DNA from: an uncultured bacterium
Lineage (GTDB): Bacteria; Verrucomicrobiota; Verrucomicrobiia; Opitutales; Coraliomargaritaceae
Reading direction: 5' to 3'
Assembly: GCA_965546855.1 (NCBI GenBank)
Contig: CBEUWO010000001.1
Span: forward strand, 20,769 to 84,768
DNA length: 64,000 nt
The notes under the pieces are model-generated. The model did not search any database, was not told the origin of the DNA, and was given only the letters and a program-made list of their open reading frames with translations. Shown in pieces: positions 3,408 through 58,785 of this stretch; the stretch's first letter is position 1, and every line of letters starts with the position of its first letter. A program made the translations under genes and the position numbers.

Positions 3408-4151
3408 CTAGTATATCAATGCGCTCTTGGATGGCACGGGAATCATCAATGTGCGCTTCTGTGTGTCACCCTCATACTCGAATATGAGTATCAGAAAGCG
3501 GGGGAGCAAATATTGGTCATCACCGTCGCCTTCCATCGGTTCATCTGTTGTCTCCCATTTTTCGAAGCTTTCGTCCCAATAAATGTATTGGATCTTCGTC
3601 ACCAACGAACTGATCACCGTGCGACGCAGGTCGTTGATGTGCTCAGTCTCTTCTTGCAAAATAGAATACCACAGTAAGCTGAGGCCTTCCGTGCGGTCGA
3701 AATAAAGAAAGGCATCGATGCCCAGTAGCGGGGCATTTTCGAGGCCGACGAGTAGCGGAGGCGCTTCGGTGAGCTGGAAATTTAGCAATGGCTCTTTGTT
3801 GTCTGAATATCCCGGTGGCCGCGCCCATCCGACTGGCTCGTCTGCGGCGCGAACCAATCCGCCGCCATTAGTCGATGAGCTGCCGTCCCCGGCTGCGATC
3901 TCGCCACCTGCGTTTATAAAGGTGGCATTGAGGAATTCGGTGACGCCATCGACGTGATCAACAAAGAAATGGCGTTCCGACCGTTCCGACCAAATACTAC
4001 TGATGGAGACGAGTAAAGAAACGGCGGCTGCGAGCAAGAAGCCAGCCACCGCAATCGCGAGAATCACTTCGAGCAAGCTCATGCCTGACCTAGATGACTG
4101 ATGGCTGATCGCTGATGGCTGATCGCTGACGGCTGATGGTTGGTGGCGCAT
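3408..4151 (-). CDS. gspJ: T2SS minor pseudopilin GspJ-like, with a heptamer repeat in its leader
   Basis: Prepilin cleavage motif G|MSLLEVILA. Its ATG overlaps the gspI stop (TAATG). Confidence 0.75.
4099..4147. repeat. 7 degenerate heptamers TGAYSGY inside the gspJ leader
   Basis: tgatggc tgatcgc tgatggc tgatcgc tgacggc tgatggt tggtggc, encoding [16 protein letters not shown] on the minus strand. Confidence 0.9.
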
Positions 4152-4615
4152 TAGAATCGGTCGAAGTCGCGTGAGCTTTGAAGGGCGTCTTTTTTATCCT
4201 GCAACAGGGTGGAGCGTTCGTCGGATTTGGACCATGTCGGGCGTAATAGGTAGAGCGACTCGGTATGAGTTGCTTCTTGCTGCTCTTGTGGCTCGCTAAA
4301 TTCGATCCTTAGCTGCACCTGAAATAGATCGACCACGTTGGTCGGCTCGATCGCTGCTTGCCAATTAGCCGTGCCGTTGTTGAGTGTTTGGTAGCGGTCG
4401 CCTTCTTCGGCATCATTCAGATTCGGCTCTAATAGTAGCTGCATGCGCACTGCACGGATATCTGCGTGGCGCAGGTCATTGCTTTGCCCATGTTCGCGTG
4501 CGAGCAGGGCGTTGACAAATGAAGCGGTCAATACAACTGAGGCCATCGCAAATAGCGCCAGTGCGACGACCACTTCGATCAGCGAAAAACCAGAAACTGT
4601 GCGGCATTGGCTCAT
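4151..4615 (-). CDS. gspI: T2SS minor pseudopilin GspI-like
   Basis: G|FSLIEVVVALALF prepilin motif, 154 aa, between gspH and gspJ. Confidence 0.75.
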   Translation of the reverse strand: MSQCRTVSGFSLIEVVVALALFAMASVVLTASFVNALLAREHGQSNDLRHADIRAVRMQLLLEPNLNDAEEGDRYQTLNNGTANWQAAIEPTNVVDLFQVQLRIEFSEPQEQQEATHTESLYLLRPTWSKSDERSTLLQDKKDALQSSRDFDRF

Positions 4616-5145
4616 TTGCGGGTGATTAACAGGCTGGAGAAGGGGTCGAAGATTAAGCGCGTCGGCGTGCCGTTACCGCTATCGATATCCACTACGAATG
4701 GGCTGGAGCTGCGATCCGGTGCAAATCTGACTGCATTGGTTTCAAGTTTGGTGCGACTGGCGTCGTTGGCGGGCGCTAGGCCTTCAGCGGCAGGCACTAG
4801 GTAAAACAGAATCTCAGCTGGGCCGCTTTGATTGAAATTTTCGTTCAGCTTAAAGGTTTCGCCGACGCTCTCTGCGTTCGAAATCGACAGGCTGCCACTC
4901 TTTTTATCAAACCTGAGTTCGGTGATGGTGCGCTCACTGGCAGCCACAAATCGCGCTTCGCGCACCGCTGCTTGCAAGATTTCTTCGCTGGTTTGCGAGT
5001 CACCCCGATCTGCGAGCGAGGCAAAGTTGGTAATCACCACCGCTGCTGCAAAGGCCATCAGTCCGAGGACGAGGACGATCTCGATCAGCGTAAAGCCCGA
5101 GGTGTCGGGTACTTGGCTGGTATGCTTACCAGTTGCCAATGTCAT
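4612..5145 (-). CDS. gspH: T2SS minor pseudopilin GspH/FimT-like
   Basis: G|[13 protein letters not shown] motif. Start chosen at ATG 5145, which is uncertain (track start is 5184). Confidence 0.75.
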
Positions 5146-5575
5146 CGGCGCTTTCGGTGCCATCTGGACCGAGCGACCATGCATCGTAGCCGCGGGCTCC
5201 GTTGATGTTCTTAGTCCCCGGGTAGCGGTATTGGTAAGGGTTATCCCAAGGGTCGAGCGGTAATTCTTTCAGGTATGCACCTTTCCACTTCGCCTCTTTG
5301 CCAGAAGGAGCCTTCGTTAGTGCTGCTAGGCCTTGCTCGGTGGAAGGGTAGTTGCCTACATCGAGTCGGTAGGGCACCAGCGCTGTATCAAGTGTCTGAT
5401 TTACAAATAGGCTGGCGACTTTTTCTTGCTGACCACTGAAAATACCACCTAAATTACCAATCGCGACCGTTGCAAGCACTGCGATCAGTGCAATTACAAT
5501 GAGGATTTCGATTAAACTGAAGCCGCTGTTGCGCTTAAGCTGACGTTTTGAAATAAGAGACGGTGATGATTTCAT
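5126..5575 (-). CDS. gspG: T2SS major pseudopilin GspG
   Basis: G|[46 protein letters not shown]...DDIGNW. Start at ATG 5575 (MKSSPS). Confidence 0.95.
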
Positions 5576-5628
5576 AAGAAAATACAGTGAAGAGAGTGTA
5601 GTAATGATGGCTTTGGAGATGTTCCTGA

Positions 5629-6120
5629 TTATGTATTCGGGACGGCAGAGGCTGTGCCGATTGTACGAGCATCGCGTGCGTTTGTGCGGCACTGGTTCTC
5701 TTCTTCGCGGATACGAACAACTTCGTCGTAGATTTCGGGACTAAAGAACTGTTTGTCGTGTTGCACTGCGTGGAGCGCCTTTGTGAGCTCTTCCAAGCCA
5801 GAAATCTTGTTGATCAATCCGTCGGCATTGCCGCGCACTGCGATCTTTATAGTCTGTGGGGATATCTCCCCTGTAAATACTAAGATCTTTATGTTCGGGT
5901 ACTTACGCTTTAAGAGGTGCAGGATTTCGAGGCCATTTACCTCTGGGAGTTGGATGTCGACGATGACGAGATCGGGAGAGAGTTGGAGGCATTGTTCGAC
6001 GCCTTCGCCGCCGTTGCCGGTCATGCCGAGCAGTTCTAAGTCGGGAAAACTTGCGGCAAAGAAGATCGAGAGCAGATCCCGAAGGATTTCCTGATCTTCA
6101 ATGATATAGACAGTTTTCAT
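5629..6120 (-). CDS. Single-domain response regulator (NarL-type receiver, no HTH)
   Basis: [19 protein letters not shown] (phospho-Asp), VFTG, ADGLINK, then NarL linker FFSPEI and stop with no LuxR HTH. Confidence 0.85.
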
Positions 6121-6372
6121 GTGTTACGGATAAGATTTTGATGTTTCACAATTAAGTTGTCGAGGGGCATGGCTGTCGAGGGGTTTTTCGGATAAAGATA
6201 ACGATTGGCTGTAATTATCAGAGGGGCGCGCACTGGCGTCGAATCCTCGAGATCCTGCTATCAAAACGCTTTAGATCGGGAAAGGCGCGGCTTGAATGGT
6301 ATTCACTGCTTGCGACCAAGAAGAGGACACTTCAAGTTGCTTTAGTTGTCATCTCTTCACATTATTCGTATT

Positions 6373-7341
6373 ATGAAACAAGGAACCGTCATCCCAGCTC
6401 CAAGAGCACTCGAAGTCGTCGACCGTCTGCGTCAAAATATTGAACGTACCATCAAAGGAAAGACCGATGCGGTCGATAAGGTAATTATTACTTTATTAGC
6501 GGGGGGGCATATTTTGATCGAAGATTTACCAGGCCTCGGTAAGACCACACTGGCGTATTGTTTGGCGCGTTCGCTCGACTGCTCCTTTTCGCGCATACAG
6601 TTTACCAGTGATATGCTGCCTTCGGATATTATCGGAGTGTCGATCTACGATGAGAAGGAGCGCGAGTTCACGTTTAAACGCGGTCCGATCTTTGCAAATA
6701 TTGTGCTCGCTGATGAAATCAACCGAACCACGCCTAAGACACAATCTAGTCTGCTCGAGGTGATGGGACGCGGCAAACTCTCAGTGGATGGGCAAACATA
6801 CACAGTGCCGCCGCCGTTCATGGTGATCGCCACTCAGAATCCTGTCGACTACGAGGGTACGTTCCCGTTGCCCGAAAGCCAGATGGACCGCTTCTTGATG
6901 CGTATCAATATTGGGTATCCAGAACGTAAATACGAATTGGAGATCTTAAAACATGGCAAGTTGCACTATGATCATCTAGAGGCGGACGCGGTGGTGTCTC
7001 GCACGGAGGTCGGTGAGTTGCAGTCTTATGTGCGTGAAGTGTTTATCGAAGATACCGTGTATGATTATATCGTGGAGATTGTGCATGCTACGCGCGAAGA
7101 GCGCTCGTTTCGCTCTGGAGTCAGTCCGCGTGGCACGCTTTCATTAAAAATCGCGGCGCAAGCCAAGGCCTTATCGCAGGGGCGTGGCTTCGTATTACCA
7201 AGCGATGTGCAGCAACTCGTTGTTCCGGTCTTTAGCCATCGACTTGCGTTAGCCAAGCCGATGTCGGACCCGATCGAAGAGCGACGCTCGATCGAGGGAC
7301 TGCTGATTGAGCTATTGGAGGCTACGCCAGAACCTGCTTGA
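6373..7341 (+). CDS. moxR: MoxR-family AAA+ ATPase
   Basis: Walker [59 protein letters not shown]. Start at ATG 6373. Confidence 0.95.
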
Positions 7342-7361
7342 TCGACCTATTGCTTCGATAG

Positions 7362-8513
7362 ATGGCACAAGCAAATGCAGAGCTGAGGAATTGGCACGAC
7401 TGGACAGATCCAGACTTTTTTGCCACCAATCGTCAGCAAGAGAAACGTTTTGTGCCGTTGTTCCTCCGGCAGATCTTGCCTAGTCATATGCTGCAAACGC
7501 GGCTTACTTTGACTGGTTGGTGCTTGATCGTGGTGTCATTTGGTATCGGACTCGCGGCTTACAATACCGCGAGTAATATTTTGTTTCTGACGCTCTCATT
7601 GCTACTCAGCAGTTTGGTGTTGAGCGGTATATTGTCGTGGGTGAATTTTAGAAAGCTTCAGTGGGCGCTGCAGGCACCCTTACACCTAAAGGTCGGCGAA
7701 GTTGGTATGGCCGAAGTTGATTTAGCGAATGGCAAAACGCTATTTCCAGCGATGGCTATTTGTTTTCGAGTGAATTCGGAGATGACAAATGAGACGGAGC
7801 GACTCTATATGCAACAGGCGCTAGGTGCAGGTGAATCGTGTAAGTTGGAATGGACTTTCGTGCCGCAACAACGTGGGAGTTTTCAATTACGTCTATCGGG
7901 CGTGCAATCGCAGTTTCCTTTTGGTTTCTTGCAAAAGACGATTGGCAGTGATTCGGAGACTTCAGTGCTGGTCTGGCCTGCGCGAATTAATTATATTTTT
8001 CAAGCTAGTCCAGGGGGGCAGCGCATTGCTGCGGGAGTCTCACGCAAGCATGCGGGCCTTGGTAATGATCTATTAAATATACGGCCGTATGTGCCCGGCG
8101 ATCCGCCACGACTGGTGCATTGGAAAGCCACTGCTCGCACTCAGCGAGTGATGGTTCGGCAACTCGCGCAGGAGGGGGAGAGTGGTTATCATCTTCAACT
8201 CGACTCAGATGCATCACGCTGGAATAGTGTGCAGTTTGAGATTCTTTGCTCGCTCGTTTGTTCGTTAGCAGATGATCTTTTCCACCTCGGACGCTTGGAG
8301 TCTGTACGTGTCGATAATTTGGGCTCGATGCCAGTGCGCACCATTCATGAGTTACATGATTTTTTCGACCAATTGGCTCAGTTGGAGCGCAAGCCACGGA
8401 AGCAAGAGGCTCAACCGCACGTGCGATCCAATCGTTTAACTTTTAGACCATGCGAGGAGAGTGGAATTGCGATTTATGTTGATGCGAATCAAGCAGGCCA
8501 GACTGACACTTGA
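7362..8513 (+). CDS. DUF58 domain protein
   Basis: Two N-terminal TMs, FPFGF, IRPYVPGDPPRLVHWKATAR motif. Follows moxR. Confidence 0.9.
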   Translation: MAQANAELRNWHDWTDPDFFATNRQQEKRFVPLFLRQILPSHMLQTRLTLTGWCLIVVSFGIGLAAYNTASNILFLTLSLLLSSLVLSGILSWVNFRKLQWALQAPLHLKVGEVGMAEVDLANGKTLFPAMAICFRVNSEMTNETERLYMQQALGAGESCKLEWTFVPQQRGSFQLRLSGVQSQFPFGFLQKTIGSDSETSVLVWPARINYIFQASPGGQRIAAGVSRKHAGLGNDLLNIRPYVPGDPPRLVHWKATARTQRVMVRQLAQEGESGYHLQLDSDASRWNSVQFEILCSLVCSLADDLFHLGRLESVRVDNLGSMPVRTIHELHDFFDQLAQLERKPRKQEAQPHVRSNRLTFRPCEESGIAIYVDANQAGQTDT

Positions 8514-12127: not shown

Positions 12128-12135
12128 CTTGTGAC

Positions 12136-13069: not shown

Positions 13070-14215
13070 CTAACGATCAAGCAGTTTTAGGAACTCGGCG
13101 TTGTTTTCTGTTTGCGTGAAGCGGTCGATCATGATCTCGGCGGCGTCTTCGATCTTTTGCCCCGAGAGTGCGCGGCGCAGAAATTGAGCGCCTTCCAAGT
13201 ATTTACCAGAAAGGATCATTTCTTCCTTACGTGTGCCGGAAGCATTGAGATTAATCGCGGGCCAGAGGCGCAGTTCTGCGGCTTTGCGGTCGAGTACCAT
13301 TTCCATATTACCGGTGCCTTTGAATTCTTGGAAGATGAGGTCGTCCATCTTGCTGCCTGTCTGCACGAGTGCGGTGGCGATGATGGTGAGACTGCCGCCT
13401 TCTTCGCAATTACGCGCAGCGGAGAAAAATTGGCGTGGCTTTTCGAGGGCGCGGCTATCGAGGCCACCGGTCATGGTGCGGCCACCTTTGCCGGATGCAG
13501 CATTGTAGGCGCGAGCCAAGCGGGTAATAGAGTCGAGCAGTAGGACGACATCTTTGCCAGCTTCGACGAGGTGCTTCGCGCGCTCGATTGCGAGCTCAGC
13601 GAGACGGGTATGATTGGTAATTTCTTCGTCGTTTGAAGATGCGTAGATCTCGGCATCGACACTGCGCTTGAAGTCGGTGACTTCTTCGGGGCGCTCGTCA
13701 ACGAGCAGCACAATGACGTGACACTCGGGGTGATTCTCCATCACGCCGTGAGCGATGTCGTGTAGAATAGTGGTCTTGCCTGTGCGTGGCGGTGCGACGA
13801 TGAGGCCGCGGGTGCCTTTGCCGATGGGGCAAAACATATCCATGATGCGTGTGGTGACGCGGCCATCTTTTGACTCAAGCTTGAGCTGCTCGTCAGGAGC
13901 GATGGAGACCATCTGTTGGAATGTGTAGCGACCTTTGCGCTCCTCTATTGTGCATCCGTCGACGGTGTCGATGAAGTTGACCTTTGGGTTAGGAAAACGC
14001 GGGTTGCTGATGGCGTTGCCTTCGATGAAGTGGCCTTGCTTGAGTCGGAAGCGCTTGATCAGCTCGCGTGTCACGAAAGGATCTGTTGGACGAGTCTTAC
14101 CGTTGCGGGCAGGGTCGAGGAGCTGGCCGGTCTTATTCGGGAGCATTTCCAGAATGCCTGATACGGTGATTTGATTATCCTGAGGTGCTTCTTTGGGTGT
14201 TGCTTCGTTACTCAT
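13070..14215 (-). CDS. rho: Transcription termination factor Rho, short atypical form
   Basis: [62 protein letters not shown]. Start at ATG 14215. Confidence 0.9.
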
Positions 14216-14492
14216 GTTCGAGTGCCACGTATGGCGGTAGTAGGTCTTTGAGAAAGTGGCGTGCGGACGCACGTCATTTCGTGGGGGCTCAACGGAAGAT
14301 AATCCGAAGATTAGTTAAATATCGTTTTTCAGCTGTTAGATGGACACTAGGTCCGCTCGATTGCGAGCCCTCGGCTGCGCATGCTTTGTAAGCGATGTGT
14401 AAGGATTTGAAGGACAAGTTTGTCGATGTCAAGCGCAGCTTCGCTGCCCTGTGAGGACTGGTGAGGACTCGGCTACGCTACCTGATGGAAAT

Positions 14493-18627: not shown

Positions 18628-18691
18628 GAAACGCTGAAATTTGGAAATACTGAAACGCTGAAATTTCGAAACTTTGAAATGCTGAAACGAT
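18628..18691. repeat. 8 tandem octamers GAAAYNNT filling the nuoD-nuoE spacer
   Basis: gaaacgct gaaatttg gaaatact gaaacgct gaaatttc gaaacttt gaaatgct gaaacgat; the last unit supplies the nuoE ATG. Confidence 0.9.
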
Positions 18692-19169
18692 GAATTTAAA
18701 ACCCGAAACAATCGAAAAAATTGATACGCTGGTGCCGCGCTATCCAACGATGAAGAGCGCCGCGCTACCACTTTGCCACTTGGTGCAAGAGGATCAGGGC
18801 TATCTTTCGAATGAGGCAATGGAATGGATCGCAGGGCGTTTGAATTTGCAGCCGATCAACATTCTTGAGTTAGTGACGTTCTACCCGATGCTGCGCACTG
18901 AGCCGACTGGTCAGCATCACGTGCGCGTTTGCCGCACACTGCCTTGCGCATTGGCTGGGGCCTATCAGACCTGCGAGCGCCTTGAGAAAGAGTTTAATTG
19001 CAAGGTCGGTCACACCAGCGAAGACGGTGCGGTGACGCTCGAGTTTGTCGAGTGTCATGCGGATTGCGGTAAAGGTCCAGTCGTGATGGTCGGTGAAGAC
19101 GAATACACTGATATCGATCCCGACAAGGCATCCGAGCTCGCTGCTAAAATCAAGAACGGCGAAATTTAG
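18690..19169 (+). CDS. nuoE: NADH-quinone oxidoreductase subunit E
   Basis: VTFYPM, VCRTLPC, VECHADC 2Fe-2S ligands. Confidence 0.95.
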   Translation: MNLKPETIEKIDTLVPRYPTMKSAALPLCHLVQEDQGYLSNEAMEWIAGRLNLQPINILELVTFYPMLRTEPTGQHHVRVCRTLPCALAGAYQTCERLEKEFNCKVGHTSEDGAVTLEFVECHADCGKGPVVMVGEDEYTDIDPDKASELAAKIKNGEI

Positions 19170-19181
19170 TCGCGCTCTTCA

Positions 19182-19204
19182 TTCCTAATTTTTAATTTCT
19201 AATT
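19182..19204. repeat. Heptamer array YYYCTAA-type in the nuoE-nuoF spacer
   Basis: ttcctaa tttttaa tttctaa tt, followed by gcttcgc. Confidence 0.75.
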
Positions 19205-24027: not shown

Positions 24028-24050
24028 TTCCTAATTTTTAATTCCTAATT
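24028..24050. repeat. Heptamer array in the nuoI-nuoJ spacer, 22/23 identical to 19182-19204
   Basis: ttcctaa tttttaa ttcctaa tt. Confidence 0.75.
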
Positions 24051-24058
24051 CTCATACA

Positions 24059-31441: not shown

Positions 31442-31448
31442 AATGAGA

Positions 31449-31582
31449 ACGGCTAAAGCCGTAGTGGGAAGGTATTAAGGTTTCAAGGTATTAAAGTGGG
31501 AAGGTTCAATAGCGGGAAAGTTAAATAATAGTTACTTTCATACTTTCGCACATTCCTACTTTTCCACTCCGCCTGTGGGCGG
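31449..31582. repeat. Hairpin-capped inverted octamer array (element A), sucB-lpdA spacer
   Basis: Hairpin acggc-taaa-gccgt; 8 x GTNNNAAR (31464-31527); ~4.5 reverse-complement units (31533-31568); hairpin ccgcc-tgtg-ggcgg abutting the sucB stop. Confidence 0.8.
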
Positions 31583-32842: not shown

Positions 32843-32860
32843 AATATGTGAGAGGGAAAT

Positions 32861-32973
32861 TCGGCTTCGCCGAGTGGGAAGGTGAGACGGTTTAAAGGTT
32901 AGAAGGTCGATTTGTTAGACTTGAATACATTTCTACTTTCGCACTTTTTAACCTTGATACAACGCGAAGCGTT
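32861..32973. repeat. Hairpin-capped inverted octamer array (element B), sucA-sucB spacer
   Basis: Hairpin tcggc-ttc-gccga; gtgggaag gtgagacg gtttaaag gttagaag...; reverse units tacatttc tactttcg cacttttt aaccttga; hairpin aacgc-gaa-gcgtt overlapping the sucA stop. Confidence 0.75.
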
Positions 32974-36532: not shown

Positions 36533-36682
36533 TCATCAGCCGCGCCTGTCTGGCGGCGTCGCGGACTGAGGGCCGACTGGTGAAAGTGCCTGTTGGTGAT
36601 GCGCTGCGCGTTGGTTGCGCAGCAGAGAGTGCGCAGTGATCGAACCATTTGTATCGCAGCAGCGACTTCGCGTTTGGCTGGT

Positions 36683-37225
36683 TTACTCGACTGGGCCTTC
36701 GTAGATGCCGATGTAGGGCACGTTGCGGAATTTTTGAGCGTAATCGAGGCCATAGCCGCAAACAAATTCGTTTACGATATCCACGCCGCAGAAGTCGATG
36801 TTTACCTCGACCGTACGACGAGACGGCTTGTTGAGCAGGGTGCAAATGCGCAGCGAAGCAGGTTTGCGCCCGTTGAGTAAACGGACGACTTTGCTGAAGG
36901 TATTGCCAGTATCGATAATGTCTTCTACCAGAAGCACGTCGCGGTCGGTAATGGATTCGTCGAGATCCATGATGACCTTCACATCACCCGAGCTTTCAGT
37001 CGCATCGCCATAACTGGAGACAGTCATAAAGTCGGTGACCATCGGGCATTTGATTTCGCGCACGAGGTCAGCCATGAATACAAACGAGCCGCGCAATAGA
37101 CCCACCACTATCAGTTCCTTGCCCGAATCCTTGTAGTGGTCGGTTATCTCACGGCCAAGTCGTGCCACTATTTGGGCGATTTCCTCTTTCGAGAATAGTG
37201 TTTTTTTTAGTCCTTGTTCAGACAT
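36683..37225 (-). CDS. hpt: Hypoxanthine phosphoribosyltransferase
   Basis: GLLRGSFVFMADL, VSSYG, VLLVEDIIDTGNT, FVCGYGLDY. Confidence 0.95.
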   Translation of the reverse strand: MSEQGLKKTLFSKEEIAQIVARLGREITDHYKDSGKELIVVGLLRGSFVFMADLVREIKCPMVTDFMTVSSYGDATESSGDVKVIMDLDESITDRDVLLVEDIIDTGNTFSKVVRLLNGRKPASLRICTLLNKPSRRTVEVNIDFCGVDIVNEFVCGYGLDYAQKFRNVPYIGIYEGPVE

Positions 37226-38400: not shown

Positions 38401-38412
38401 GTAGAGATTCAA

Positions 38413-38538
38413 GGGCTGAGACTTGAGGGCTGAGACTTGAGAGCTGAGACTTGAGGGCTGAGACTTGAGGGCTGAGACTTGAGGGCTGAGACTTGAGGGC
38501 TGAAACTTGAGAGCTGAGACTTGAGGGCTGAGACTTGA
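38413..38538. repeat. 9 tandem 14-bp units GGGCTGAGACTTGA (VNTR)
   Basis: 9 contiguous units; units 3 and 8 start GAG, unit 7 has AAA for AGA; no spacers. Confidence 0.97.
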
Positions 38539-38599
38539 GGGGGCAGAGCTGCTGCATGTTGGCATCAGTCGTGCGAGCAGATTTTAAGTTGACGTGTTC

Positions 38600-43141: not shown

Positions 43142-43150
43142 AAAAAGAGA

Positions 43151-43221
43151 GAGCTGAAAGCTGAGGCTTGAGTGCTGAGGGAGAACCGCGTGAGGCGTCA
43201 CCTTTGAGGCTGGAGGGCTGA
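43151..43221. repeat. Heptamer arrays RRGCTGA flanking a mini-hairpin, downstream of aroC
   Basis: gagctga aagctga ggcttga gtgctga ... gtga-ggcg-tcac ... ggctgga gggctga; same unit family as 38413. Confidence 0.8.
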
Positions 43222-44322: not shown

Positions 44323-44333
44323 GGGTGTCAGGA

Positions 44334-44354
44334 GTGATTAGTGAAAAATGAAAA
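44334..44354. repeat. 3 degenerate heptamers just upstream of the aroC start
   Basis: gtgatta gtgaaaa atgaaaa. Confidence 0.45.
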
Positions 44355-44470
44355 GATTAGCGCCACCTATGACTGTGGCAGTAGGGGTGCAATGCAACGT
44401 GTGGTTGGCGGGAAGTCAATATTGCGGCGTCATGGATATTGGTTAAGTAATTCGAATCATTCATTTGATT

Positions 44471-49588: not shown

Positions 49589-49646
49589 AAGAGTCCTCGT
49601 CGGTCAGGACTGTTCCAAGCTAAAATTGAAGGTGGATACTACTTGG

Positions 49647-51383: not shown

Positions 51384-51539
51384 GGGGTGGACAGACTATG
51401 TAAAGCTTCCCTCAAAGTATAGGGAAATAGCCAGATGCAGTTCCTAGGTTTCTTTAGTGATCGATCGATTGTTTCAATGAGTGAGCTGGTACTGTATTGC
51501 GACTTGGTTGGAGTGTAAATTTTTAAGATAATACTTGAT

Positions 51540-51560
51540 TTAGTGTAGTAGTTACACTTA
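51540..51560 (+). promoter_or_regulatory. Predicted NrtR operator
   Basis: 21-bp palindrome TTAGTGTAGTAGTTACACTTA with GT-N7-AC core, 9 bp upstream of the pncB ATG; nrtR lies two genes downstream. Confidence 0.75.
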
Positions 51561-51569
51561 TTGGAGTGC

Positions 51570-52736
51570 ATGGCGACATTACTAGATAACGACCTCTATA
51601 AATTCACGATGATGCAAGCGGTGTGGCTTAAGTATCCGACGGCCGAAGTGCGCTATCAGTTTATCAATCGTCGCCCTACGGATACCTTTACTGAAGAGGC
51701 TGTTGTGTTGATTCAGCAACGGATCAATGCACTTGCTGAATGTCAGATGACTGAGGAGGAGTTGCAATTTTTAGCGAAATTGCCATTTATCAACGGGGAT
51801 TTCATTGAGTTCTTACGTGGTTTTAAGTTAAAAGCGGACACAGTTCAGTTGGAGTTAATCAATGGTCAACTGGGCATTTGGGTTACTGGCACTTGGGTGG
51901 ATACAATTCTTTGGGAGGTGCCTTTGATGGCGATCATCAGTGAAACCTATTTCGAAGTGGTGGATACGAATTGGCCAGATGAACTCGATGCCTACGGAGC
52001 ACGTGCTATGATAAAAGGAGATCGTTTGACGGAGGCTGGCTGTGATTTTTTTGAATTCGGCACGCGTCGTCGCCGTAGTTATGCGTATCAAGATGCTGTG
52101 GTGGCCGCGTTTAAAAAAATCGGCGGCACCTGTGGCGGCACGAGTAACTTACATTTCGCGATGAAGCATGGTTTGAATCCTGTTGGCACGATGGCGCACG
52201 AATGGATTATGGGACATGCAGGTTTGATGGGGGTTAAGCAGGCAAATGTGAATGCCTTGGATGCGTGGCTGGAGGTGTATCAAGGGCGTCTTGATACCGC
52301 GTTGACCGATACGTATACAACGGAGTATTTCCTCAAGAATATTGCCGGTCGTCTTGCTCAGACGTATGACGCGGTGCGACATGATAGTGAATGCCCCTTT
52401 GTATTCGCTGATCGGATACTGGAATTCTACCAGGATGAGGCGATTGATGCGGGCACCAAGGGAATCGTATTCAGTGACAGCTTGAACGTGGATAAAGTGA
52501 TCGCCATCGAGCAGCATGTGGCTGAGCGTATTAAGACGTGGTATGGAATCGGCACTCATTTCACGAATGATTTTGGTGACAGTCCTGCGCTGAATATCGT
52601 GATCAAGCTGTATGAAGTGAACGGTGTGAAAGTTGCTAAGATCAGCGATAACCCAATCAAAGCCAGTGGCGACCGGCTTGCTGTCGAGCAAAGTCTCGCC
52701 GCGCTCCAACTGACTGTAGTCGGAGTTAGCAACTAA
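51570..52736 (+). CDS. pncB: Nicotinate phosphoribosyltransferase
   Basis: LLDNDLYKFTM, EFGTRRR, GTSN, GTMAHEW, LTDTY, VRHDS, FSDSL, GIGT, AKISD. ATG 51570 after GGAG. Confidence 0.95.
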   Translation: MATLLDNDLYKFTMMQAVWLKYPTAEVRYQFINRRPTDTFTEEAVVLIQQRINALAECQMTEEELQFLAKLPFINGDFIEFLRGFKLKADTVQLELINGQLGIWVTGTWVDTILWEVPLMAIISETYFEVVDTNWPDELDAYGARAMIKGDRLTEAGCDFFEFGTRRRRSYAYQDAVVAAFKKIGGTCGGTSNLHFAMKHGLNPVGTMAHEWIMGHAGLMGVKQANVNALDAWLEVYQGRLDTALTDTYTTEYFLKNIAGRLAQTYDAVRHDSECPFVFADRILEFYQDEAIDAGTKGIVFSDSLNVDKVIAIEQHVAERIKTWYGIGTHFTNDFGDSPALNIVIKLYEVNGVKVAKISDNPIKASGDRLAVEQSLAALQLTVVGVSN

Positions 52737-52776
52737 CTGCTGCCTCCTGAATTTTCTTCTAATACCACATCATATC

Positions 52777-53130
52777 ATGAAACATATTCACCTTGGCGCA
52801 GCGGCGCTCAACACGACTCCTAAGGACTGGACTGGGAATACTGCTAAGATTCTTGCTGCGATTGAGGCGGCGAAAGCGCGTGGAGTTGGCTTACTGTGTT
52901 TGCCTGAACTGGCTACGACTGGTTATGGCTGCGAGGACGAATTCCATGCGCCTTATGTATCGGAGTGGGCGATGAATCAGGTGCTTTGCGATATTGCGCC
53001 GATGACTGTCGGAATTGCGGTTACTGTTGGTTTGCCGATTCAGTTTGGAGGAGCGACTTACAATGCGATCTGTGTGCTGGCTGATGGGGCGGCCTTGGGC
53101 TTTGCAGTTAAGCAGAACCTTGCGGGCTGA
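52777..53130 (+). pseudogene. nadE: Truncated glutamine-dependent NAD+ synthetase (N-terminal 117 aa of the glutaminase domain only)
   Basis: LNTTPKDWTGN, LCLPELATTGYGCEDEF, GLP..YNA, KQNLAG then TGA from a heptamer array. No nucleophile Cys or synthetase domain follows; context is pncB-nadE-nrtR. Confidence 0.85.
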
Positions 53131-53158
53131 AACCTGAGGGCTGAAACTTGAGACCTGA
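53124..53158. repeat. 5 heptamers at the nadE truncation point
   Basis: gggctga aacctga gggctga aacttga gacctga; same family as 38413 and 43151. Confidence 0.88.
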
Positions 53159-53303
53159 GAGTAGGGGCTTTGCTTTGTGAAGACCGCGTAAAGGGCACGG
53201 GCTCACGGAGTTCTATCGCGCCTGATACAGACTCGAAAATCCGCCTAACCTTGCCTGATCCATTCAGATAAACGTTCAATTTACTGGCGCTGCTGCGTTT
53301 ACC

Positions 53304-53331
53304 TTCTAAATTCTAACTCCTAAATTCTAGC
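53304..53331. repeat. 4 heptamers TYCTARM upstream of nrtR
   Basis: ttctaaa ttctaac tcctaaa ttctagc. Confidence 0.75.
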
Positions 53332-53342
53332 TCCTCTTCTAT

Positions 53343-54053
53343 ATGCCACCGAAAAAGAAATCACCATCACCTATAGCGTTGTCCTCGTTTATCGTGTCCG
53401 TGGATAGCGTGATCTTTGCATACATGAACAAGGCGGTTTATATCCCGCTGATTATGCGAGGGGTTGAGCCATTCCTCGATTGCTGGAGCCTGCCTGGTGG
53501 GCCGATTCTCGAGCAAGAAGCTCCAGAGGCTGCGTGCCTTCGAAAGCTTGAAGAAGATATGGGACTGAAGGTAGAGTATCTGGAGCAGCTGTATACCTTT
53601 GGTGCGCCCGATCGCGATCCGCGTAAGCGAGCGTTCAGTATTAGTTATTTTGCGTTGATTGCAGAGAGTGAGGAGCCCTTGTCGTGGGGGCAGGATTCTC
53701 GAACGGCACAATGGTTTCATATCGATCAGTTACCCTCTGAAGCGTGGGCTTTTGATCATCAAACGATTGTGCAGATGGCGATCAAGCGTCTGCGTGCCAA
53801 GCTGAGTTATGAGCCTGTCGGGCTGAGCCTCCTTCCTGAGGAGTTCGGCTTGTCAGAGTTGATGCATATTTATGAGGTGATTTTAGGCACTGAATTAGAC
53901 CGTCGCAATTTCCAGAAGAAAATGAAGTCGACCGGTCTGTTGATTCCGACCCGCACCGTCCCAAGTCCACGTGGCAGGCCGAGCCAACTCTATCGCTTCG
54001 ATGAAGCACGGTATGCAGAGTTGAAGGAAGAAGGTTTTGCTTTCGGGTTTTAG
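53343..54053 (+). CDS. nrtR: NrtR-family transcriptional regulator (Nudix + winged HTH)
   Basis: VSVDSVIF, WSLPGG, LEQLYTFGAPDRDPR, AFDHQTI, LPEEFGLSEL, LDRRNFQKKM, GRPSQLYRF. Confidence 0.92.
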   Translation: MPPKKKSPSPIALSSFIVSVDSVIFAYMNKAVYIPLIMRGVEPFLDCWSLPGGPILEQEAPEAACLRKLEEDMGLKVEYLEQLYTFGAPDRDPRKRAFSISYFALIAESEEPLSWGQDSRTAQWFHIDQLPSEAWAFDHQTIVQMAIKRLRAKLSYEPVGLSLLPEEFGLSELMHIYEVILGTELDRRNFQKKMKSTGLLIPTRTVPSPRGRPSQLYRFDEARYAELKEEGFAFGF

Positions 54054-54120
54054 TCGCTAGCCTGCAGGCAAACGTTGGAGTTTTTTAACCGCTTAACCAG
54101 CATGACGAAAAGAGCGCCCT

Positions 54121-54396
54121 ATGGATTTACTAAGTGATATTAAAAGTAGAAAACTGCTAATTGCAAAAGGTTGCTTGTTTGGCTTGGTTGCGGCGCTGGC
54201 TGGGGTAGGCTTATTGCTGCAGACTTTGCAGTGGGAGACCCTGTGCTTGCTGCTGATTTTCGGGTGGAGTGTCTGCCGGTTTTATTACTTCCTCTTCTAT
54301 GTTTTGGAGCATTACGCGGGGCGCGACAGGAAATACGCTGGGATCTTAGACGAGTTGAAGCACTTGTTGAAGAAGCGAGAGAATCGACAGAAGTGA
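54121..54396 (+). CDS. Small hypothetical membrane protein
   Basis: 91 aa, two hydrophobic segments, CRFYYFLFYVLEHY motif. Confidence 0.7.
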   Translation: MDLLSDIKSRKLLIAKGCLFGLVAALAGVGLLLQTLQWETLCLLLIFGWSVCRFYYFLFYVLEHYAGRDRKYAGILDELKHLLKKRENRQK

Positions 54397-54420
54397 AGCA
54401 TGAGCTAGTCGGGCAGTCAT

Positions 54421-54843
54421 ATGGGGCATTATTGTTATTACTGTGGAGAGTCGAAGTCGAATGAAGCCTTTTCGGGAAAGGGGCATCGTCGGCATTTGTG
54501 CCGTGCCTGTTATTCAATTCCTGCTGCAGAGCGTGAGGAATCCGAGCTTTGGGGGCGCTTGCATGGTCTGATGGATCAGTCGAATATTTCGAAGAAGAAT
54601 ATTGTCTGGCTGAAGTCGCTTCTCAAGCATTCGAATCAGTCGATGCGAGCGCATGCCCAGCTGATTCTGCATGTCGCCGAGGTTGCTCCTTTTCGTAAGA
54701 AGCGTTACCAGCGTATCGCGGTGTCTTCGACCAAGCTGTTGAAACTATGTATTGATTCGGGTTTGTTGTATCAACCAGATTATTCAGGGGGCGCAGATTC
54801 TGGTAGTGAGGAGAGCTTCGAAGAGGATCATGTGCCGTTCTAA
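54421..54843 (+). CDS. Hypothetical protein with an N-terminal Zn-finger-like motif
   Basis: MGHYCYYCG...FSGKGHRRHLCRAC, QSNISKKNI. Confidence 0.75.
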   Translation: MGHYCYYCGESKSNEAFSGKGHRRHLCRACYSIPAAEREESELWGRLHGLMDQSNISKKNIVWLKSLLKHSNQSMRAHAQLILHVAEVAPFRKKRYQRIAVSSTKLLKLCIDSGLLYQPDYSGGADSGSEESFEEDHVPF

Positions 54844-54900
54844 TCAGCAGTGAATTCTGTGTGTTCTTATACTCGCACAGCGTGGGCAGCGGAAGCGGTA

Positions 54901-55591
54901 TTATGGAGTCCTTATTCCTATCTCTTTCAAATCCTTGCCTAAACATTCCAATGTTCAATCGGAGTTCAGTGTTTCGATAACGGTCGAGCTAATTTCATGT
55001 TTAAACACTTTGGATAACGCATCTTTGTCCAGAACCCGTTCATAGTATTCTTCCGCCCATTGTTGGCTTGTTCGACATTCTGACTCAAGCACGGAGGTGT
55101 TCGACGAGTGTGAGCGGCGGCGTGAAAGTGGTGTGATGTGGGCGGTTTGATAATCCTCTAGATTCTTAAGTTCCTCACCTAAAAACCGACAAAATTCTCC
55201 CCGTCACGGGGTTGCACTTCATTTTCTTGTCTTTTTGCAATCTCCTTACCTCGCTTCTTGAAGCGTATCATCATCGCCCGAAGCTCTTGAAGATTTTCGG
55301 TATCGAAAAGCATTGTAAGTCCTAGGATGAGAGGATCTTCCGTAATCCTATGGGCTTCTCGATCAAGTGTGAAGCCTCATGAAGCTCAGCGGGATTTTCT
55401 CCGCCGATTCAGGTTTCGTCGCTTGGTTGATTCAAACTCGACTTTGCTGCTCGACTGCGTCGTTGAGAACGCCTGCGACGCTCTCGCTGGCACTCAGGGA
55501 TTGAGCAGTGGGCCTGCCGCTCCTTTACGCGTCGATCCGGTTCAAATGGCTGCTCACAGGCTTCGCAGGTCTTTACTGTTTTGATTTTCAT
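54901..55591 (-). pseudogene. Decayed gene(s): Cys-rich N-terminus plus frameshifted downstream fragments
   Basis: ATG 55591 MKIKTVKTCEACEQPFEPDRRVKERQAHCSIPECQRERRR stops at 55409; further stop-interrupted protein-like segments in shifted frames (EDPLILGLTMLFD..., GEFCRFLGEE...). Confidence 0.5.
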
Positions 55592-55871
55592 GTACCTTAG
55601 AATTAATTTAGCGACAGAACACAGCAATATTAACCTGCTGCAACAAATACATGCACTTCGTCGGGCAGATTGACGATGACAGCATCTGCACCGTTCCCCC
55701 CATAAGGAGCAAAGATGTGGTGGCATGATCAAGCGAGTGTCTACGTCTTCAATCGCTTGACGAACTCAGCGAATGCGCGACAATTTAATGTGTCATTAAG
55801 TGACCAGACACCTCAGTTCGTAACGATTGGCGCGTCACTGATACTGTTCGCAAACAACAACAACGACGACG

Positions 55872-56726
55872 ATGATGATGCGATTATCATATACACAAAA
55901 GGGAGTGGCGTGGATTACATTAATCGTCTTGCTCTTTTCGGTCGCGCTTTTTTACAACCGCGACGTCACCCTAGTGGATGCGCTGCTGCTGTTTGGTCTA
56001 TGCTTTGTTTGTGAGCTAATCGATAGTGGTTTAGGCATGGGTTATGGAACCATCCTGACCCCATCGCTGCTGCTCTTGGGCTACGATGCTCAGGATATCG
56101 TGCCGACCATCTTACTCTCGGAACTTTTGAGCGGGTTCACTGCCTCGTTTTTCCACAACGAGATCAAGAACGTTGATTTGAGTTTTCGGGGGAAGGATTT
56201 AAAATCCGCAGCGATCCTTGCCGGTGGCAGCATCGCAGGAGTGACCGCAGGGGTGTTTCTAGCGGTCAACATTTCCAAGCAACTTCTCAACGTCGGCGTC
56301 GGGTGCATTATTCTATTGTCAGGTCTCTTTGTGCTATTGTTGGCTCGAACCGTAGTTGAGTATCGGACTTGGAAAATGGTTCTTTTATCGATTGTGGCGT
56401 CCTTCAACAAGGCGGTCAGCGGAGGTGGCTACGGGCCGTTGGTCACCAGCGGTCAGGTTTTGAGCGGAGTGCAAGGTAAGTCTTCGGTTGGAATTACTTC
56501 ATTTGCCGAGGCCTTTACCTGCCTATTCGCCGTTTCCCTGTTTCTCGCTAAAGGGGGCGGAGTCAGCTTCGTGATCTTTATTCCCATGTGCGCTGGAGCG
56601 TTGATCTCCGTTCCATTTTCGGTGTTTGCGATTAACAAAACCAAGGAAAGCTACCTGAAGGTCATTATCGGGGTGGTGACGATGCTGATGGGAGGGCTGA
56701 CGCTTCTTAAGGCACTATCATCTTGA
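55872..56726 (+). CDS. Sulfite exporter TauE/SafE (TSUP) family membrane protein
   Basis: DSGLGMGYGTILTP, VSGGGYGP duplicated half motifs, about 9 TMs. Confidence 0.88.
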   Translation: MMMRLSYTQKGVAWITLIVLLFSVALFYNRDVTLVDALLLFGLCFVCELIDSGLGMGYGTILTPSLLLLGYDAQDIVPTILLSELLSGFTASFFHNEIKNVDLSFRGKDLKSAAILAGGSIAGVTAGVFLAVNISKQLLNVGVGCIILLSGLFVLLLARTVVEYRTWKMVLLSIVASFNKAVSGGGYGPLVTSGQVLSGVQGKSSVGITSFAEAFTCLFAVSLFLAKGGGVSFVIFIPMCAGALISVPFSVFAINKTKESYLKVIIGVVTMLMGGLTLLKALSS

Positions 56727-56750
56727 GTGTATATCGAGTCTGGTAAGCAC

Positions 56751-57023
56751 TCAACATGCTCTAAAGTGTCGAGCGCCGAAAAAGTCATGGTAGCGCCGCA
56801 TCGGCTCATGCGGCATCTGATCGCAAACGAACCGCGAGGCCTTCTCTAATTCATTATCGATTCTTGCCAAAGTTCGACGAGGAAGCAAAACACCGGACTT
56901 TATGGCCTGTTGACTCTTTTTGCTAGGCGAATGGCATTCTTTACGATACACCTCAATTTCTATCTTCACCGCACCATGAAAGAGCGGTCGCATGCTTCGG
57001 GAGAGTTCCGACTTTTTAGGCAT
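56751..57023 (-). CDS. Possible hypothetical protein (MPKKSELSRS...)
   Basis: Open frame of about 90 aa inside track ORF 56751..57119 filling an otherwise empty gap; no recognisable family. Confidence 0.3.
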   Translation of the reverse strand: MPKKSELSRSMRPLFHGAVKIEIEVYRKECHSPSKKSQQAIKSGVLLPRRTLARIDNELEKASRFVCDQMPHEPMRRYHDFFGARHFRAC

Positions 57024-57137
57024 GCATTTATTATCCAAACTGTGGTCAAACAGACCCAGGCATCCAAGAGTCGCATGATCGGAGTATCGTCTTATATATA
57101 GGCGGCCAGCGCGTCTCACTACTCAAAGCAAATCGTT

Positions 57138-58520
57138 ATGTCATTTTCTGAACTGGGACTTCTTCCCGAACTCGTTGCAGCCGTTGAAGCCAAAGGCTAC
57201 ACCACTCCTTCACCGATCCAAGCGCGTGCGATTCCTGCGGTCCTAGAGCGCCGCGACGTCCTCGGCGGCGCACAAACTGGCACGGGTAAAACCGCTGCCT
57301 TTAGTTTGCCTATGCTACAGATCCTTGCCGGCTCTGAGTTTAATGGCCAGAACAAGCGCCCCCGTGCGCTCGTCCTCGCGCCGACTCGTGAGCTCGCAGC
57401 ACAGGTGCATCAAAGCATTGTTGATTACGGTCAGCATGTGAAGATACGCTCGTGTGTGATTTTTGGTGGGGTGGGCTTCCAGCCACAGATCAATGCACTG
57501 CGCCGTGGGCTCGATATTGTCGTCGCTACTCCGGGTCGCTTGCTCGACCTCTGTCAGCGTGGTGAGATGCAACTCTCGAACATTGAGATGCTAGTCCTCG
57601 ACGAAGCCGACCGCATGTTGGACATGGGCTTTATCAATGACATTAAGAAGATTCTGCAATTGATGCCTGCCAAGCGTCAGAATTTGTTCTTCTCGGCCAC
57701 CTATACTAAGGAGGTCAAGAAGCTTGCCGACTCGATGTTGCACAATGCTGTCGAAGTCGAAGTTGCCGCCCGTAATGCCACTGCAGACCGCGTTGATCAA
57801 GAGGCGTATGTCGTCGCCCAAAAGGCAAAACCACAATTTCTAGCCGAACTGATCGAGCAGGGGGATTGGACGCAAATCCTGGTCTTTTCTCGCACCAAGC
57901 ATGGCGCTAATAAGCTCGCTACGCATTTGGATAAGCAAGGTATCAGCGCAATGGCGATTCATGGCAACAAGAGCCAGTCCGCCCGTGAGCGTGCCCTCGC
58001 AGCCTTCAAAGCGAACAAGATTCGTGTGCTGGTCGCAACTGATATTGCCGCACGTGGTCTCGACATCGCCGATTTGCCGCATGTGGTGAATTACGAGCTG
58101 CCAAATATCCCCGAAGACTATGTGCACCGCATCGGCCGCACAGGTCGTGCAGGTAGAGCGGGTAACGCAGTCTCACTCGTCAGTGATGTCGAAGAGGGCT
58201 ATCTCTGGGACATCGAGAAGACGATGAAGAAGCACATTCCACTTTTCAGAATCGATGATCGGGGCGAAAAGATTGCTGTGCCACGTCCGGCGACACGCTC
58301 AAAGCTCTCACGCCCTGCACCCGGTCAACAGAACCGTGGCGGTGGTGGCCGTGGTCGTGGCCGTCAGGGCGGCGGCGGTGGACGTCCACAAGGAGGTGGT
58401 CGTGCAGGCGGTGGTCGTTCCCAAGGCGGCGGTCGTGCAGGCGGCGGTCGTTCTGGCGGTGGCTCACCAGCTGGTGGGTCGAGCGCAGCGCCGACTCGTT
58501 CACGCGGACGCAATCGTTAA
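57138..58520 (+). CDS. rhlE: DEAD-box RNA helicase RhlE-like
   Basis: Q motif, AQTGTGKT, PTRELA, TPGRLLD, DEAD, SAT, ARGLD, HRIGRTGRAG, Gly/Arg-rich tail. Confidence 0.95.
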   Translation: MSFSELGLLPELVAAVEAKGYTTPSPIQARAIPAVLERRDVLGGAQTGTGKTAAFSLPMLQILAGSEFNGQNKRPRALVLAPTRELAAQVHQSIVDYGQHVKIRSCVIFGGVGFQPQINALRRGLDIVVATPGRLLDLCQRGEMQLSNIEMLVLDEADRMLDMGFINDIKKILQLMPAKRQNLFFSATYTKEVKKLADSMLHNAVEVEVAARNATADRVDQEAYVVAQKAKPQFLAELIEQGDWTQILVFSRTKHGANKLATHLDKQGISAMAIHGNKSQSARERALAAFKANKIRVLVATDIAARGLDIADLPHVVNYELPNIPEDYVHRIGRTGRAGRAGNAVSLVSDVEEGYLWDIEKTMKKHIPLFRIDDRGEKIAVPRPATRSKLSRPAPGQQNRGGGGRGRGRQGGGGGRPQGGGRAGGGRSQGGGRAGGGRSGGGSPAGGSSAAPTRSRGRNR

Positions 58521-58531
58521 TCATTTTGAAG

Positions 58532-58559
58532 GGCGGGCTGAACAGCCCGCCTTTTTTTT
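58532..58559 (+). terminator. Intrinsic terminator of rhlE
   Basis: ggcgggctg-aa-cagcccgcc followed by T8. Confidence 0.9.
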
Positions 58560-58638
58560 ATGCCTGTAGAACGCTGGTGAAGCCAGTGTGACCCTCCGAC
58601 TCAAGATTCATCGCATAAAACGCATAAACCTAGATTCG

Positions 58639-58785
58639 GGAGTTAGAAGTAATGAGTTAGAAGTTAGTGTCTCTGTGTCAGAGACTTACGGGATGTTGAG
58701 GACTAGCCAACTTGGCGAACCTCTCTGATACTGTAAACAACTGATGATCTGAGACTAACTCCTGACTACTAGCTTCTAACTACTC
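58639..58785. repeat. Inverted heptamer arms around a ~80-bp core, upstream of hemN
   Basis: Left: ggagtta gaagtaa tgagtta gaagtta gtgtctc. Right: gaga ctaactc ctgacta ctagctt ctaacta ctc, an imperfect reverse complement. Confidence 0.75.

Follow-up and report, generated by a model that had tools for sequence, protein, structure and literature searches.

What places runs of short tandem units in the narrow spacers between the genes of housekeeping operons? The question is raised by a stretch of 64,000 nucleotides (the window) from an uncultured bacterium of the Coraliomargaritaceae, part of a 2.62-Mb assembly of 205 contigs, in which arrays of 7-, 8- and 14-bp units adjoin nuoD/E/F/I/J, sucA-sucB-lpd, ffh, the DAHP synthase gene and aroC. 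The initial annotation of this DNA had regarded the arrays as footprints of an element that inserts at gene junctions, and had pointed to similar arrays beside small four-helix-bundle and GxxExxY genes in other genomes. The explanation that we favor, and consider probable, is that the arrays are the arms of small hairpin-flanked cassettes which colonize the stop-to-start junctions of operons.

Cargo cassettes at operon junctions

Arrays were detected with Tandem Repeats Finder (TRF), with five shuffles of intergenic DNA as controls. Genes were called with a crude open reading frame (ORF) caller of our own, and starts that ran through arrays were re-trimmed. The 281 kb of intergenic DNA in the whole genome gave 113 TRF rows of period 7 (2-10 in the shuffles), 79 of period 14 (0-3), 67 of period 8 (4-10) and 15 of period 16 (0-1). 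All four periods lie far above the shuffles, with tandem repeats of periods 7, 8 and 14 in 10-15-fold excess, and given these controls chance is not the source of the arrays. Once merged, arrays with a period of 7 or 8 or a multiple of these (14, 16, 21, 24, 28) number 374 in the genome, 285 of them in its non-coding part (~13%), and about 17% of the intergenic gaps hold an array. Nearly all arrays that the initial annotation had listed for the window are found by TRF; those at 32926-32957, 43202-43221 and 44334 fall below its threshold yet are visible in the sequence.

A profile search of the genome returned six matches to PF05635 (23S_rRNA_IVP, the four-helix-bundle protein of 23S rRNA intervening sequences, hereafter IVP) with 57-105 bits, none of them in the window. 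On these genes TIGR02436, "four helix bundle protein," scores 78-98 bits. All six share one layout between a stop codon and the next start: the upstream stop is followed by G- or G/T-rich 7-nt units, the small gene, a complementary G-poor run and finally the ATG of the next gene, which lies within a few bases of this 3' arm. TRF arrays are present on 10 of the 11 assessable flanks. The second family, PF13366 (PDDEXK_3, the GxxExxY family), has ten matches in the genome, and inverted arms of 8-10-nt units surround six of the nine that could be assessed (two of these six are pseudogenes). An example is the pair CTCACGCAAAGACGCAGAGACGCAAAG ... CTTTGCGTCTCTGCGCCTTTGCGTGAG between gatA and gatB. 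The link to four-helix-bundle and GxxExxY genes, which the initial annotation had mentioned, is thus confirmed in this genome, and it extends across the genus.

The same genes emerged from a blind scan for inverted repeats in the flanks of 1935 genes, in which five IVP or GxxExxY cargo genes were among the top eight. The remaining three were two bona fide transposase genes (IS1595 and IS200-like), whose presence validates the scan, and a host gene with a cassette on either side. The IS1595-family transposase gene (C105:7655-8344, L181) has 25-bp terminal inverted repeats, and the IS200-like Y1 transposase gene (C163:173-841, L182) lies between GC-rich hairpins resembling repetitive extragenic palindromic (REP) sequences and is possibly a REP-associated tyrosine transposase (RAYT). 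At one further site (C202:780-1711) the 3' end of the upstream gene stands before an IVP cassette and a second, diverged copy of that gene's last ~40 codons stands after it. It looks as if this cassette had arrived with a foreign copy of the gene's end.

As these loci show, a full cassette begins behind an upstream stop with an arm of 7-10-nt units that is rich in G or purines. A single small gene without a promoter follows, and then the complementary arm, poor in G, leads to the next ATG, the whole being co-oriented with the host operon. Its cargo is the four-helix-bundle "23S rRNA IVS protein" (IVS, intervening sequence) or a GxxExxY PD-(D/E)XK nuclease, and sometimes a toxin-antitoxin pair. 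The paired arms would form a stem in the polycistronic mRNA that is cleaved by RNase III, as in rRNA intervening sequences; the rnc gene for RNase III is present in the genome.

Comparison with 22 congeners supplied the alleles that the initial annotation had proposed to look for. Each congener has 0-9 copies of the IVP and of the GxxExxY family, many of which are broken genes. The period of IVP arms is 7 in about 22 of 29 cases, and their 3' arm is almost free of G; GxxExxY arms are mostly of period 8-10 (exceptions are three calls of 6 and single calls of 5 and 11), never of 7, and often end AACC...GGTT. Arm stems average about -40 kcal/mol across the genus set. At orthologous junctions, empty, hairpin-only and differently filled sites were all found. 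The gatA-gatB junction, which holds a GxxExxY cassette in this genome, carries cargo-less hairpins bounded by AACC...GGTT in G034, G006 and G031, a small antitoxin-like ORF inside GxxExxY-type arms in G011 (L082), and a RelE-like toxin with its antitoxin inside such arms in G016 (L087). In G008 it is a clean empty site of 37 nt, the flanks of which match those of the G006 element. Between pdhA and pdhB this genome carries an IVP cassette, the arms of which are CAGAGGC/GCCTCTG. Hairpins of 75-111 nt, belonging to the TTAGGAA or the AGTTAGAAG family, occupy the junction in about a dozen close relatives, and shorter arrays are seen there in the most distant congeners. Upstream of purM, an IVP gene in three congeners is replaced here by a decayed GxxExxY gene with different arms.

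Variation of this kind was also evident at the junctions represented in the window. The sucA-sucB spacer of G014 is 18 nt long and repeat-free. Distant congeners have 25-46 nt at this junction and close ones 58-144 nt (the maximum of 144 nt being that of G011), with a mix of units that changes. The sucB-lpd spacer is 11-15 nt long in two distant congeners, and close ones have 92-176 nt there with their units mixed differently. The shortest suc spacers of relatives, at 11-18 nt, are empty. A RelE/ParE-like insert lies between sucB and lpd in G019 (L023). A decayed GxxExxY gene had been read by eye in the sucB-lpd spacer of G015 and was dropped, since it has no PF13366 match even at E <= 1. Between ffh and the DAHP synthase gene, 14 of 18 congener loci have hpt followed by 3-5 units of AAGTCTC/AGCCCTC; here hpt is lost and the array has expanded to 9 x 14 bp. 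An apparent trace of the first codons of the lost hpt remains beside the expanded array (38542-38599), and a different hpt, 38% identical, lies just downstream of the DAHP synthase gene (36683-37225). Synteny at the nrtR and hemN-like junctions is not kept across the genus. It is clear that arrays also grow by slippage, all comparisons of unit number being between species. Spacers thus vary between relatives, alleles with and without inserts are present, and a gene family accompanies the arrays. With the non-random orientation described below, nothing that the initial annotation had named as speaking against its element was observed.

Arrays of the window and their unit families

No cargo gene lies inside the window, as the initial annotation had stated. 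Its cargo would be gone or would never have been present, and what remains would be decayed hairpins in the suc operon, solo arms altered by slippage at the nuo, ffh-DAHP synthase, aroC and nrtR junctions, and one transposing derivative that is a MITE (miniature inverted-repeat transposable element). The features are as follows; arrays were called by TRF at the coordinates given, except for the three below its threshold.

4093-4147, minus strand: GATGGCT x 7.9 (sense AGCCATC), between two pseudopilin-like genes
18628-18694, plus strand: GAAAYNNT octamers x 7.5, the whole nuoD-nuoE spacer, purine-rich, up to the nuoE ATG
19181-19204, plus strand: ATTTCTA x 3.4 in the nuoE-nuoF spacer; sense strand G-free, G/C skew -1.0
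24028-24051, plus strand: TTCCTAA x 3.4, filling the 35-nt nuoI-nuoJ spacer; sense strand G-free
31442-31582, minus strand: hairpin element filling the sucB-lpd spacer, with imperfectly complementary 8-mer arms
31533-31562 and 31463-31505, minus strand: its 5' arm in the mRNA (GAAAGTA type) and its 3' arm (CCTTCCCA type)
31569-31582 and 31449-31462, minus strand: its small terminal hairpins
32843-32971, minus strand: second element of the same design in the sucA-sucB spacer, arms 32926-32957 (below threshold) and 32878-32907
38412-38541, minus strand: solo array of 9.3 x 14 bp with 94% matches, sense CAAGTCTCAGCCCT, ending 11 nt before the DAHP synthase start
43142-43221, minus strand: spacer between aroC and the next ORF, with sense C-rich heptamers after the stop (43202-43221, below threshold) and before the start (43149-43179)
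44323-44365, minus strand: weak, degenerate pyrimidine-rich heptamers just upstream of the aroC start, below threshold
53124-53160, plus strand: G-rich array of 5'-arm type, GGGCTGA / AACCTGA, the first TGA of which ends a truncated hydrolase ORF
53304-53335, plus strand: C-rich array of 3'-arm type, CTAAATTCTAACTC, 7 nt before the nrtR start
58629-58793, plus strand: MITE copy of 165 bp, whose subterminal inverted arms are the heptamer arrays 58641-58667 and 58754-58784

Most of these unit families have a cargo-bearing counterpart in this genome or in the genus. The GATGGCT family of the 4093 array (TGATGGCT / TAGCCAT) flanks IVP genes upstream of purM at three congener loci (L139, L140, L142). 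The nuo arrays at 19181 and 24028 both belong to the TTCCTAA/TTAGGAA family, which forms the hairpins between pdhA and pdhB in at least 12 congeners and also brackets IVP genes at L130, L143 and L144. The octamer family of the suc operon, GGGAAGGT/GAAAGTA, flanks an IVP gene in congener G007 (L145). The GGGCTGA/GACTTGA family, seen at 38412, 43149 and 53124, makes up the arms of both IVP cassettes on contig C37 of this genome, where the 3' arms are of the same family as the 38412-38541 array. Finally, the AGTTAGAAG/CTTCTAACT family of the 53304 array and the MITE arms flanks IVP genes between gltB and gltD at five congener loci (L118-L122). For the GAAAYNNT octamers at 18628, no cargo-bearing counterpart was found in this genome or its congeners.

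The sucB-lpd element is a real hairpin, with a predicted fold of -36.6 kcal/mol on the sense strand (z = -3.9) and -42.4 kcal/mol on the antisense strand (z = -3.15). Its counterpart between sucA and sucB folds weakly (z = -1.4) and contains the small hairpin CTCGGCGAAGCCGAG. Such small hairpins of the form CGGC-N3-4-GCCG (e.g., CTCGGCGCAGCCGA) are located at 31449-31462, 31569-31582 and 32864-32878. Many congeners have them too, within their suc-operon elements and at the termini of these (L008-L021), sometimes two in a spacer. The initial annotation had proposed that the two forms of array build an inverted pair wherever both occur. This stood for 31463/31533 and 58641/58754 and held weakly for 32878/32926, but fell for 53124/53304, where the arrays are from two unrelated unit families and are not complementary. 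The ORF that ends at the former of these (52777-53130, plus strand) is a carbon-nitrogen hydrolase that spans just positions 3-104 of the 256 in the profile. Its truncation coincides exactly with the repeat, its stop being the TGA of the first unit at 53124.

At two sites the arrays are, in one case probably, of another nature than the initial annotation had assumed. The array at 4093-4147 had been taken for a spacer repeat. The gene upstream of it (4151-4615) carries an N_methyl motif, and the sole in-frame start before the prepilin-type cleavage site G/MSLLE is the ATG at 4151, which overlaps the upstream stop. From this reading of the frame, the array is probably translated, within a long prepilin leader that ends in G/MSLLE. 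If translated, the leader (4093-4151) would be unusually long, at 23 residues, and a change of one unit would shift its frame.

The pair at 58639/58755 had been grouped with the junction arrays, and is instead part of a separate element. The genome holds at least 45 copies with 93-99% identity, many of them at contig ends. Alignment of 29 full copies defined the termini CCTAGA...TTTAGG, and 19 of these 29 are bounded by a perfect A/T-rich target duplication of 5 bp, compared to 2.4 expected by shuffling; the copy in the window has none. Copies mostly lie tens to hundreds of bases (50-800 nt) from genes, often between convergent ones. Short, non-coding and with inverted termini, many near-identical copies and target duplications, the element at 58629-58793 is a true MITE and moves by ordinary transposition, unlike the junction cassettes. 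Its arms belong to the same family as those around IVP genes between gltB and gltD, and on this likeness it may be derived from an IVP cassette. A longer element with CCTAGA termini was not found in the assembly, in which it could be missed because repeats break contigs. The IS1595 copy has terminal repeats that differ from the MITE termini.

Orientation of the arrays and Shine-Dalgarno-free leaders

The initial annotation described a polarity in which, along the transcript, a purine-rich form follows stops and a pyrimidine-rich form precedes starts. The rule holds genome-wide. Of the arrays that lie closest to a stop, 38 are purine-rich on the sense strand and 19 pyrimidine-rich; of those closest to a start, 20 are purine-rich and 65 pyrimidine-rich (Fisher p = 3.5e-7 for stop versus start). 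The bias is significant separately for the genes of each strand, and a replication-strand bias was ruled out as its cause, since it flips with gene strand. G/C skew is the sharper description of this polarity. At co-directional junctions, 58 C-rich and 18 G-rich arrays lie within 40 nt upstream of a start (p = 5e-6), whereas the count behind stops and more than 40 nt from a start is 14 G-rich to 5 C-rich. The purine-rich array at 18628-18694, which runs up to the nuoE start, is an exception to the rule that the C-rich form stands before starts.

The leaders of this genome help to understand the rule. A Shine-Dalgarno-like tetramer is found at -18 to -4 in 11% of 903 well-defined starts compared to 8.6% at a control position, and G accounts for 13-17% of the last 20 nt before starts versus roughly 26% genome-wide. 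It is evident that this genome uses no Shine-Dalgarno pairing. Initiation of this kind would require the sequence within ~40 nt of a start to have little G, no structure and no start-like codons. C-rich arrays have 0.78 start-like codons per 100 nt as opposed to 5.4 in G-rich ones; they often contain no stop at all, and half of the G-rich arrays are stopped in all three frames. The RNA of the 38412-38541 array is less structured than all 200 of its shuffles (z = +2.95), and that of the 43142-43221 spacer is likewise unstructured (z = +0.96). Shine-Dalgarno-free initiation therefore probably fixes the orientation of the arrays: near a start only the G-poor strand of any repeat would be tolerated, and the G-rich complement would survive only behind stops. 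With cassettes being co-transcribed with their operon, such a filter would have them settle with the G-rich arm on the 5' side. The polarity would then have two causes, the one-way orientation of cassettes and, more strongly, the leader constraint, and the orientation rule becomes a clean natural record of the features required in a leader without Shine-Dalgarno pairing.

The window also encodes an altered Rho factor (13070-14272, minus strand). Its alignment to E. coli Rho begins at about residue 45, with the N-terminal helical bundle missing, and the LQDGFGFLR motif reads LPNKTGQLL, so that F62, F64 and R66 of the primary binding site for C-rich RNA are replaced. This is of note in a genome whose long, C-rich, unstructured and untranslated arrays would resemble ideal rut sites.

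Origin of the arrays and their place among known systems

Several observations weigh against a cassette origin for the arrays. The gene calls rest on our own crude ORF model and on an assembly of 205 contigs, and the window itself is without a cargo gene. In a strict test, 157 of 172 arrays had no significant complementary partner within 900 nt. Shared unit families are what suggests that these solo arrays descend from cassette arms, and slippage in situ could by itself produce them. The claim of the initial annotation thus divides in two: the tie between arrays and a junction element stood, and the footprint origin of solo arrays became a matter of family likeness, with slippage also at work. 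Furthermore, related IVP proteins at different junctions carry unrelated arm families, the only exception being the two adjacent copies on C37. Together with the toxin-antitoxin genes inside GxxExxY-type arms, this indicates that arms either turn over fast or are re-used by new cargo; for IVP, the arms turn over fast or do not move with the cargo. The constraint on leaders upstream of starts explains the polarity at least as well as insertion orientation does.

The proposed RNA stem is subject to similar reservations. Stem stability does not differ between the sense and the antisense strand, and arm mismatches comprise 33 G-U versus 55 A-C pairs, which is no enrichment of G-U. Selection on the stem as sense RNA is thus not evident, and it may be as DNA that the arms are important. 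Contigs of this organism from marine and estuary metatranscriptomes are short, of low depth and direction-less, too short to show processing. The 38412-38541 array has high depth and loose ends in them, which shows only that the repeat occurs in many other contexts. At window position 36638 one of these contigs (run X1) is 26 bases shorter, probably through strain variation. As for mobility, target duplications are missing from the junction cassettes, and an enzyme that moves them was not identified in the genome; a route by which cassettes other than the MITE reach new junctions is something that we infer.

Could the arrays have arisen where they stand? Leader motifs might have been expanded in place by replication slippage and kept because G-poor, unstructured and repeat-rich leaders aid Shine-Dalgarno-independent translation (e.g., via ribosomal protein S1), in which case the arrays would be targets of selfish genes and not parts of an element. 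Most arrays are indeed solo, their copy number shifts in unit steps between congeners, and the orientation bias is strongest beside start codons, in a genome without Shine-Dalgarno sites whose big C-rich array is unusually unstructured and nearly devoid of start-like codons. The different arms on related IVP genes at different junctions and the toxin-antitoxin cargo in GxxExxY-type arms would also fit, and the same orientation rule has been described for TAACTGA repeats (MacGregor, 2015; PMC4679880). We nonetheless regard slippage as an unlikely source of the arrays as a whole, as it leaves unexplained both the G-rich arrays behind stops and the mutually complementary arms around cargo genes. 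Nor does it account for an arm period that tracks the cargo (7 for IVP, 8-10 for GxxExxY), or for a clean empty site in G008 where G006 and G031 have a whole AACC...GGTT hairpin. The IVP cassette between pdhA and pdhB has an arm family that differs from the hairpin resident in most relatives, which means that its arms came with the cargo or were replaced along with it.

Quite improbable, in our estimate, is that every array is the end or a piece of a conventional MITE, mobilized in trans by a DDE transposase whose gene lies elsewhere in the genome. This description fits the element at 58629-58793 exactly, its arms share a family with the arrays flanking IVP genes between gltB and gltD, and an IS1595 transposase is at hand. 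However, the terminal repeats of IS1595 do not match those of the MITE, and the junction arrays and cassettes are not near-identical dispersed copies, have no target duplication and stand a few bases from stops and starts, a position unlike that of most MITE copies. It is even harder to see the arrays as contingency (phase-variation) repeats or as arrays of regulator sites, whose unit number would switch or tune the neighboring housekeeping genes. Such a role would agree with unit numbers that differ between congeners and with the 4093-4147 array, where one unit more or less in the probable coding leader shifts the frame, but the genes concerned belong to constitutive core metabolism (nuo, suc, aro, ffh), dozens of unrelated units share the design so that no single regulator site fits, and arrays are equally present behind stops.

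The cassette origin remains the reading that we prefer. If it is true, the dispersed heptamer and octamer repeats gain a concrete origin, the source having been open since the short tandemly repeated repetitive (STRR) sequences of cyanobacteria were described, and they become linked to two very common families of unknown function, PF05635 and PF13366. The intervening sequences of rRNA would then be one habitat of a broader type of element whose home is between the cistrons of essential operons. In practice, the arrays mislead the calling of start codons (several of the longest ORFs here run through them), break assemblies, as the MITE at many contig ends illustrates, and mark hot spots at which neighboring genes are lost or truncated, such as hpt and the hydrolase at 52777.

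How do these cassettes relate to what is known? The STRR heptamers of heterocystous cyanobacteria are dispersed intergenic tandem repeats of unknown origin, as are the arrays here, in another phylum and with other unit sequences. To our knowledge, neither polarity relative to genes nor a link to cargo has been reported for STRR. Among bacterial MITEs, the copy at 58629-58793 fits well and is unusual in having tandem-heptamer arms of a family that brackets IVP genes; the other arrays of the window are without MITE hallmarks. Like integron cassettes with their attC hairpins, the junction cassettes consist of small promoterless genes with imperfect inverted repeats able to fold, have one orientation, are expressed from host promoters and exchange cargo at one site. 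Unlike them, they have no integrase and no attI platform, are scattered singly over many operon junctions, and have arms of short tandem units in place of attC.

Closer in appearance are the oriented TAACTGA heptamers found just upstream of starts in marine Beggiatoaceae and in some Cyanobacteria and Bacteroidetes, for which a translational role was proposed, in Beggiatoaceae with the involvement of ribosomal protein S1 (MacGregor, 2015; PMC4679880). These too are tandem heptamers; nearly all lie between genes, one orientation prevails, and they stop a few bases short of starts, in genomes with few Shine-Dalgarno sites, upstream of essential genes as well and with 7-nt indels between strains. 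That work concerned one heptamer and reported no complementary post-stop form, hairpins or cargo link. In contrast, dozens of unit families are present here (CTCAGCC/CTCAAGT, TTCCTAA, CTAACTC, AGCCATC and others), and the closest units are CTAACTC and CTAACTT, not TAACTGA.

The nearest relatives of the junction cassettes are the intervening sequences of 23S rRNA, known from Coxiella burnetii and Leptospira. The Coxiella IVS has a 28-bp terminal stem, tandem GACAGAT heptamers that vary between strains and lie 5' of the S23p ORF, and is excised by RNase III (PMC4990558). The junction cassettes share with these sequences the S23p/IVP four-helix-bundle cargo (PF05635), terminal inverted repeats that give a long stem, many copies with a decayed ORF or none, and tandem purine-rich heptamers 5' of the ORF, the number of which varies between strains in the IVS. 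A stem of the IVS kind is found in the six IVP and six GxxExxY cassettes and in the element at 31442-31582, but not in the solo arrays. Cutting by RNase III, known for the Coxiella stem, would apply here by analogy. The differences lie in the location between protein-coding genes instead of in 23S helix 25 or 45, in a second cargo of the same design (the GxxExxY nuclease with its 8-10-nt units), and in solo arms and expanded arrays that far outnumber complete elements. The 23S rRNA of congener G029 has no insert, and that of the present genome is unassembled. Full-text searches on both cargo families, on heptamer repeats and on MITEs turned up no account of this cassette design outside rRNA or between protein genes. 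The junction feature is thus a variant of the known IVS-type hairpin cassette, in a habitat for which no description was found.

On a broader and more speculative view, which we put forward tentatively and rate below an even chance, tandem-unit hairpin cassettes would be a widespread, essentially undescribed class of mobile elements that includes the rRNA IVS. The cargo protein would act on its own periodic arms (the pentameric four-helix-bundle protein on 7-nt units, the GxxExxY nuclease on those of 8-10 nt), the elements would home to the stop-start junctions of operons and be kept harmless by excision at the RNA level, and their decayed arms would explain the STRR-like excess of repeats in several phyla.

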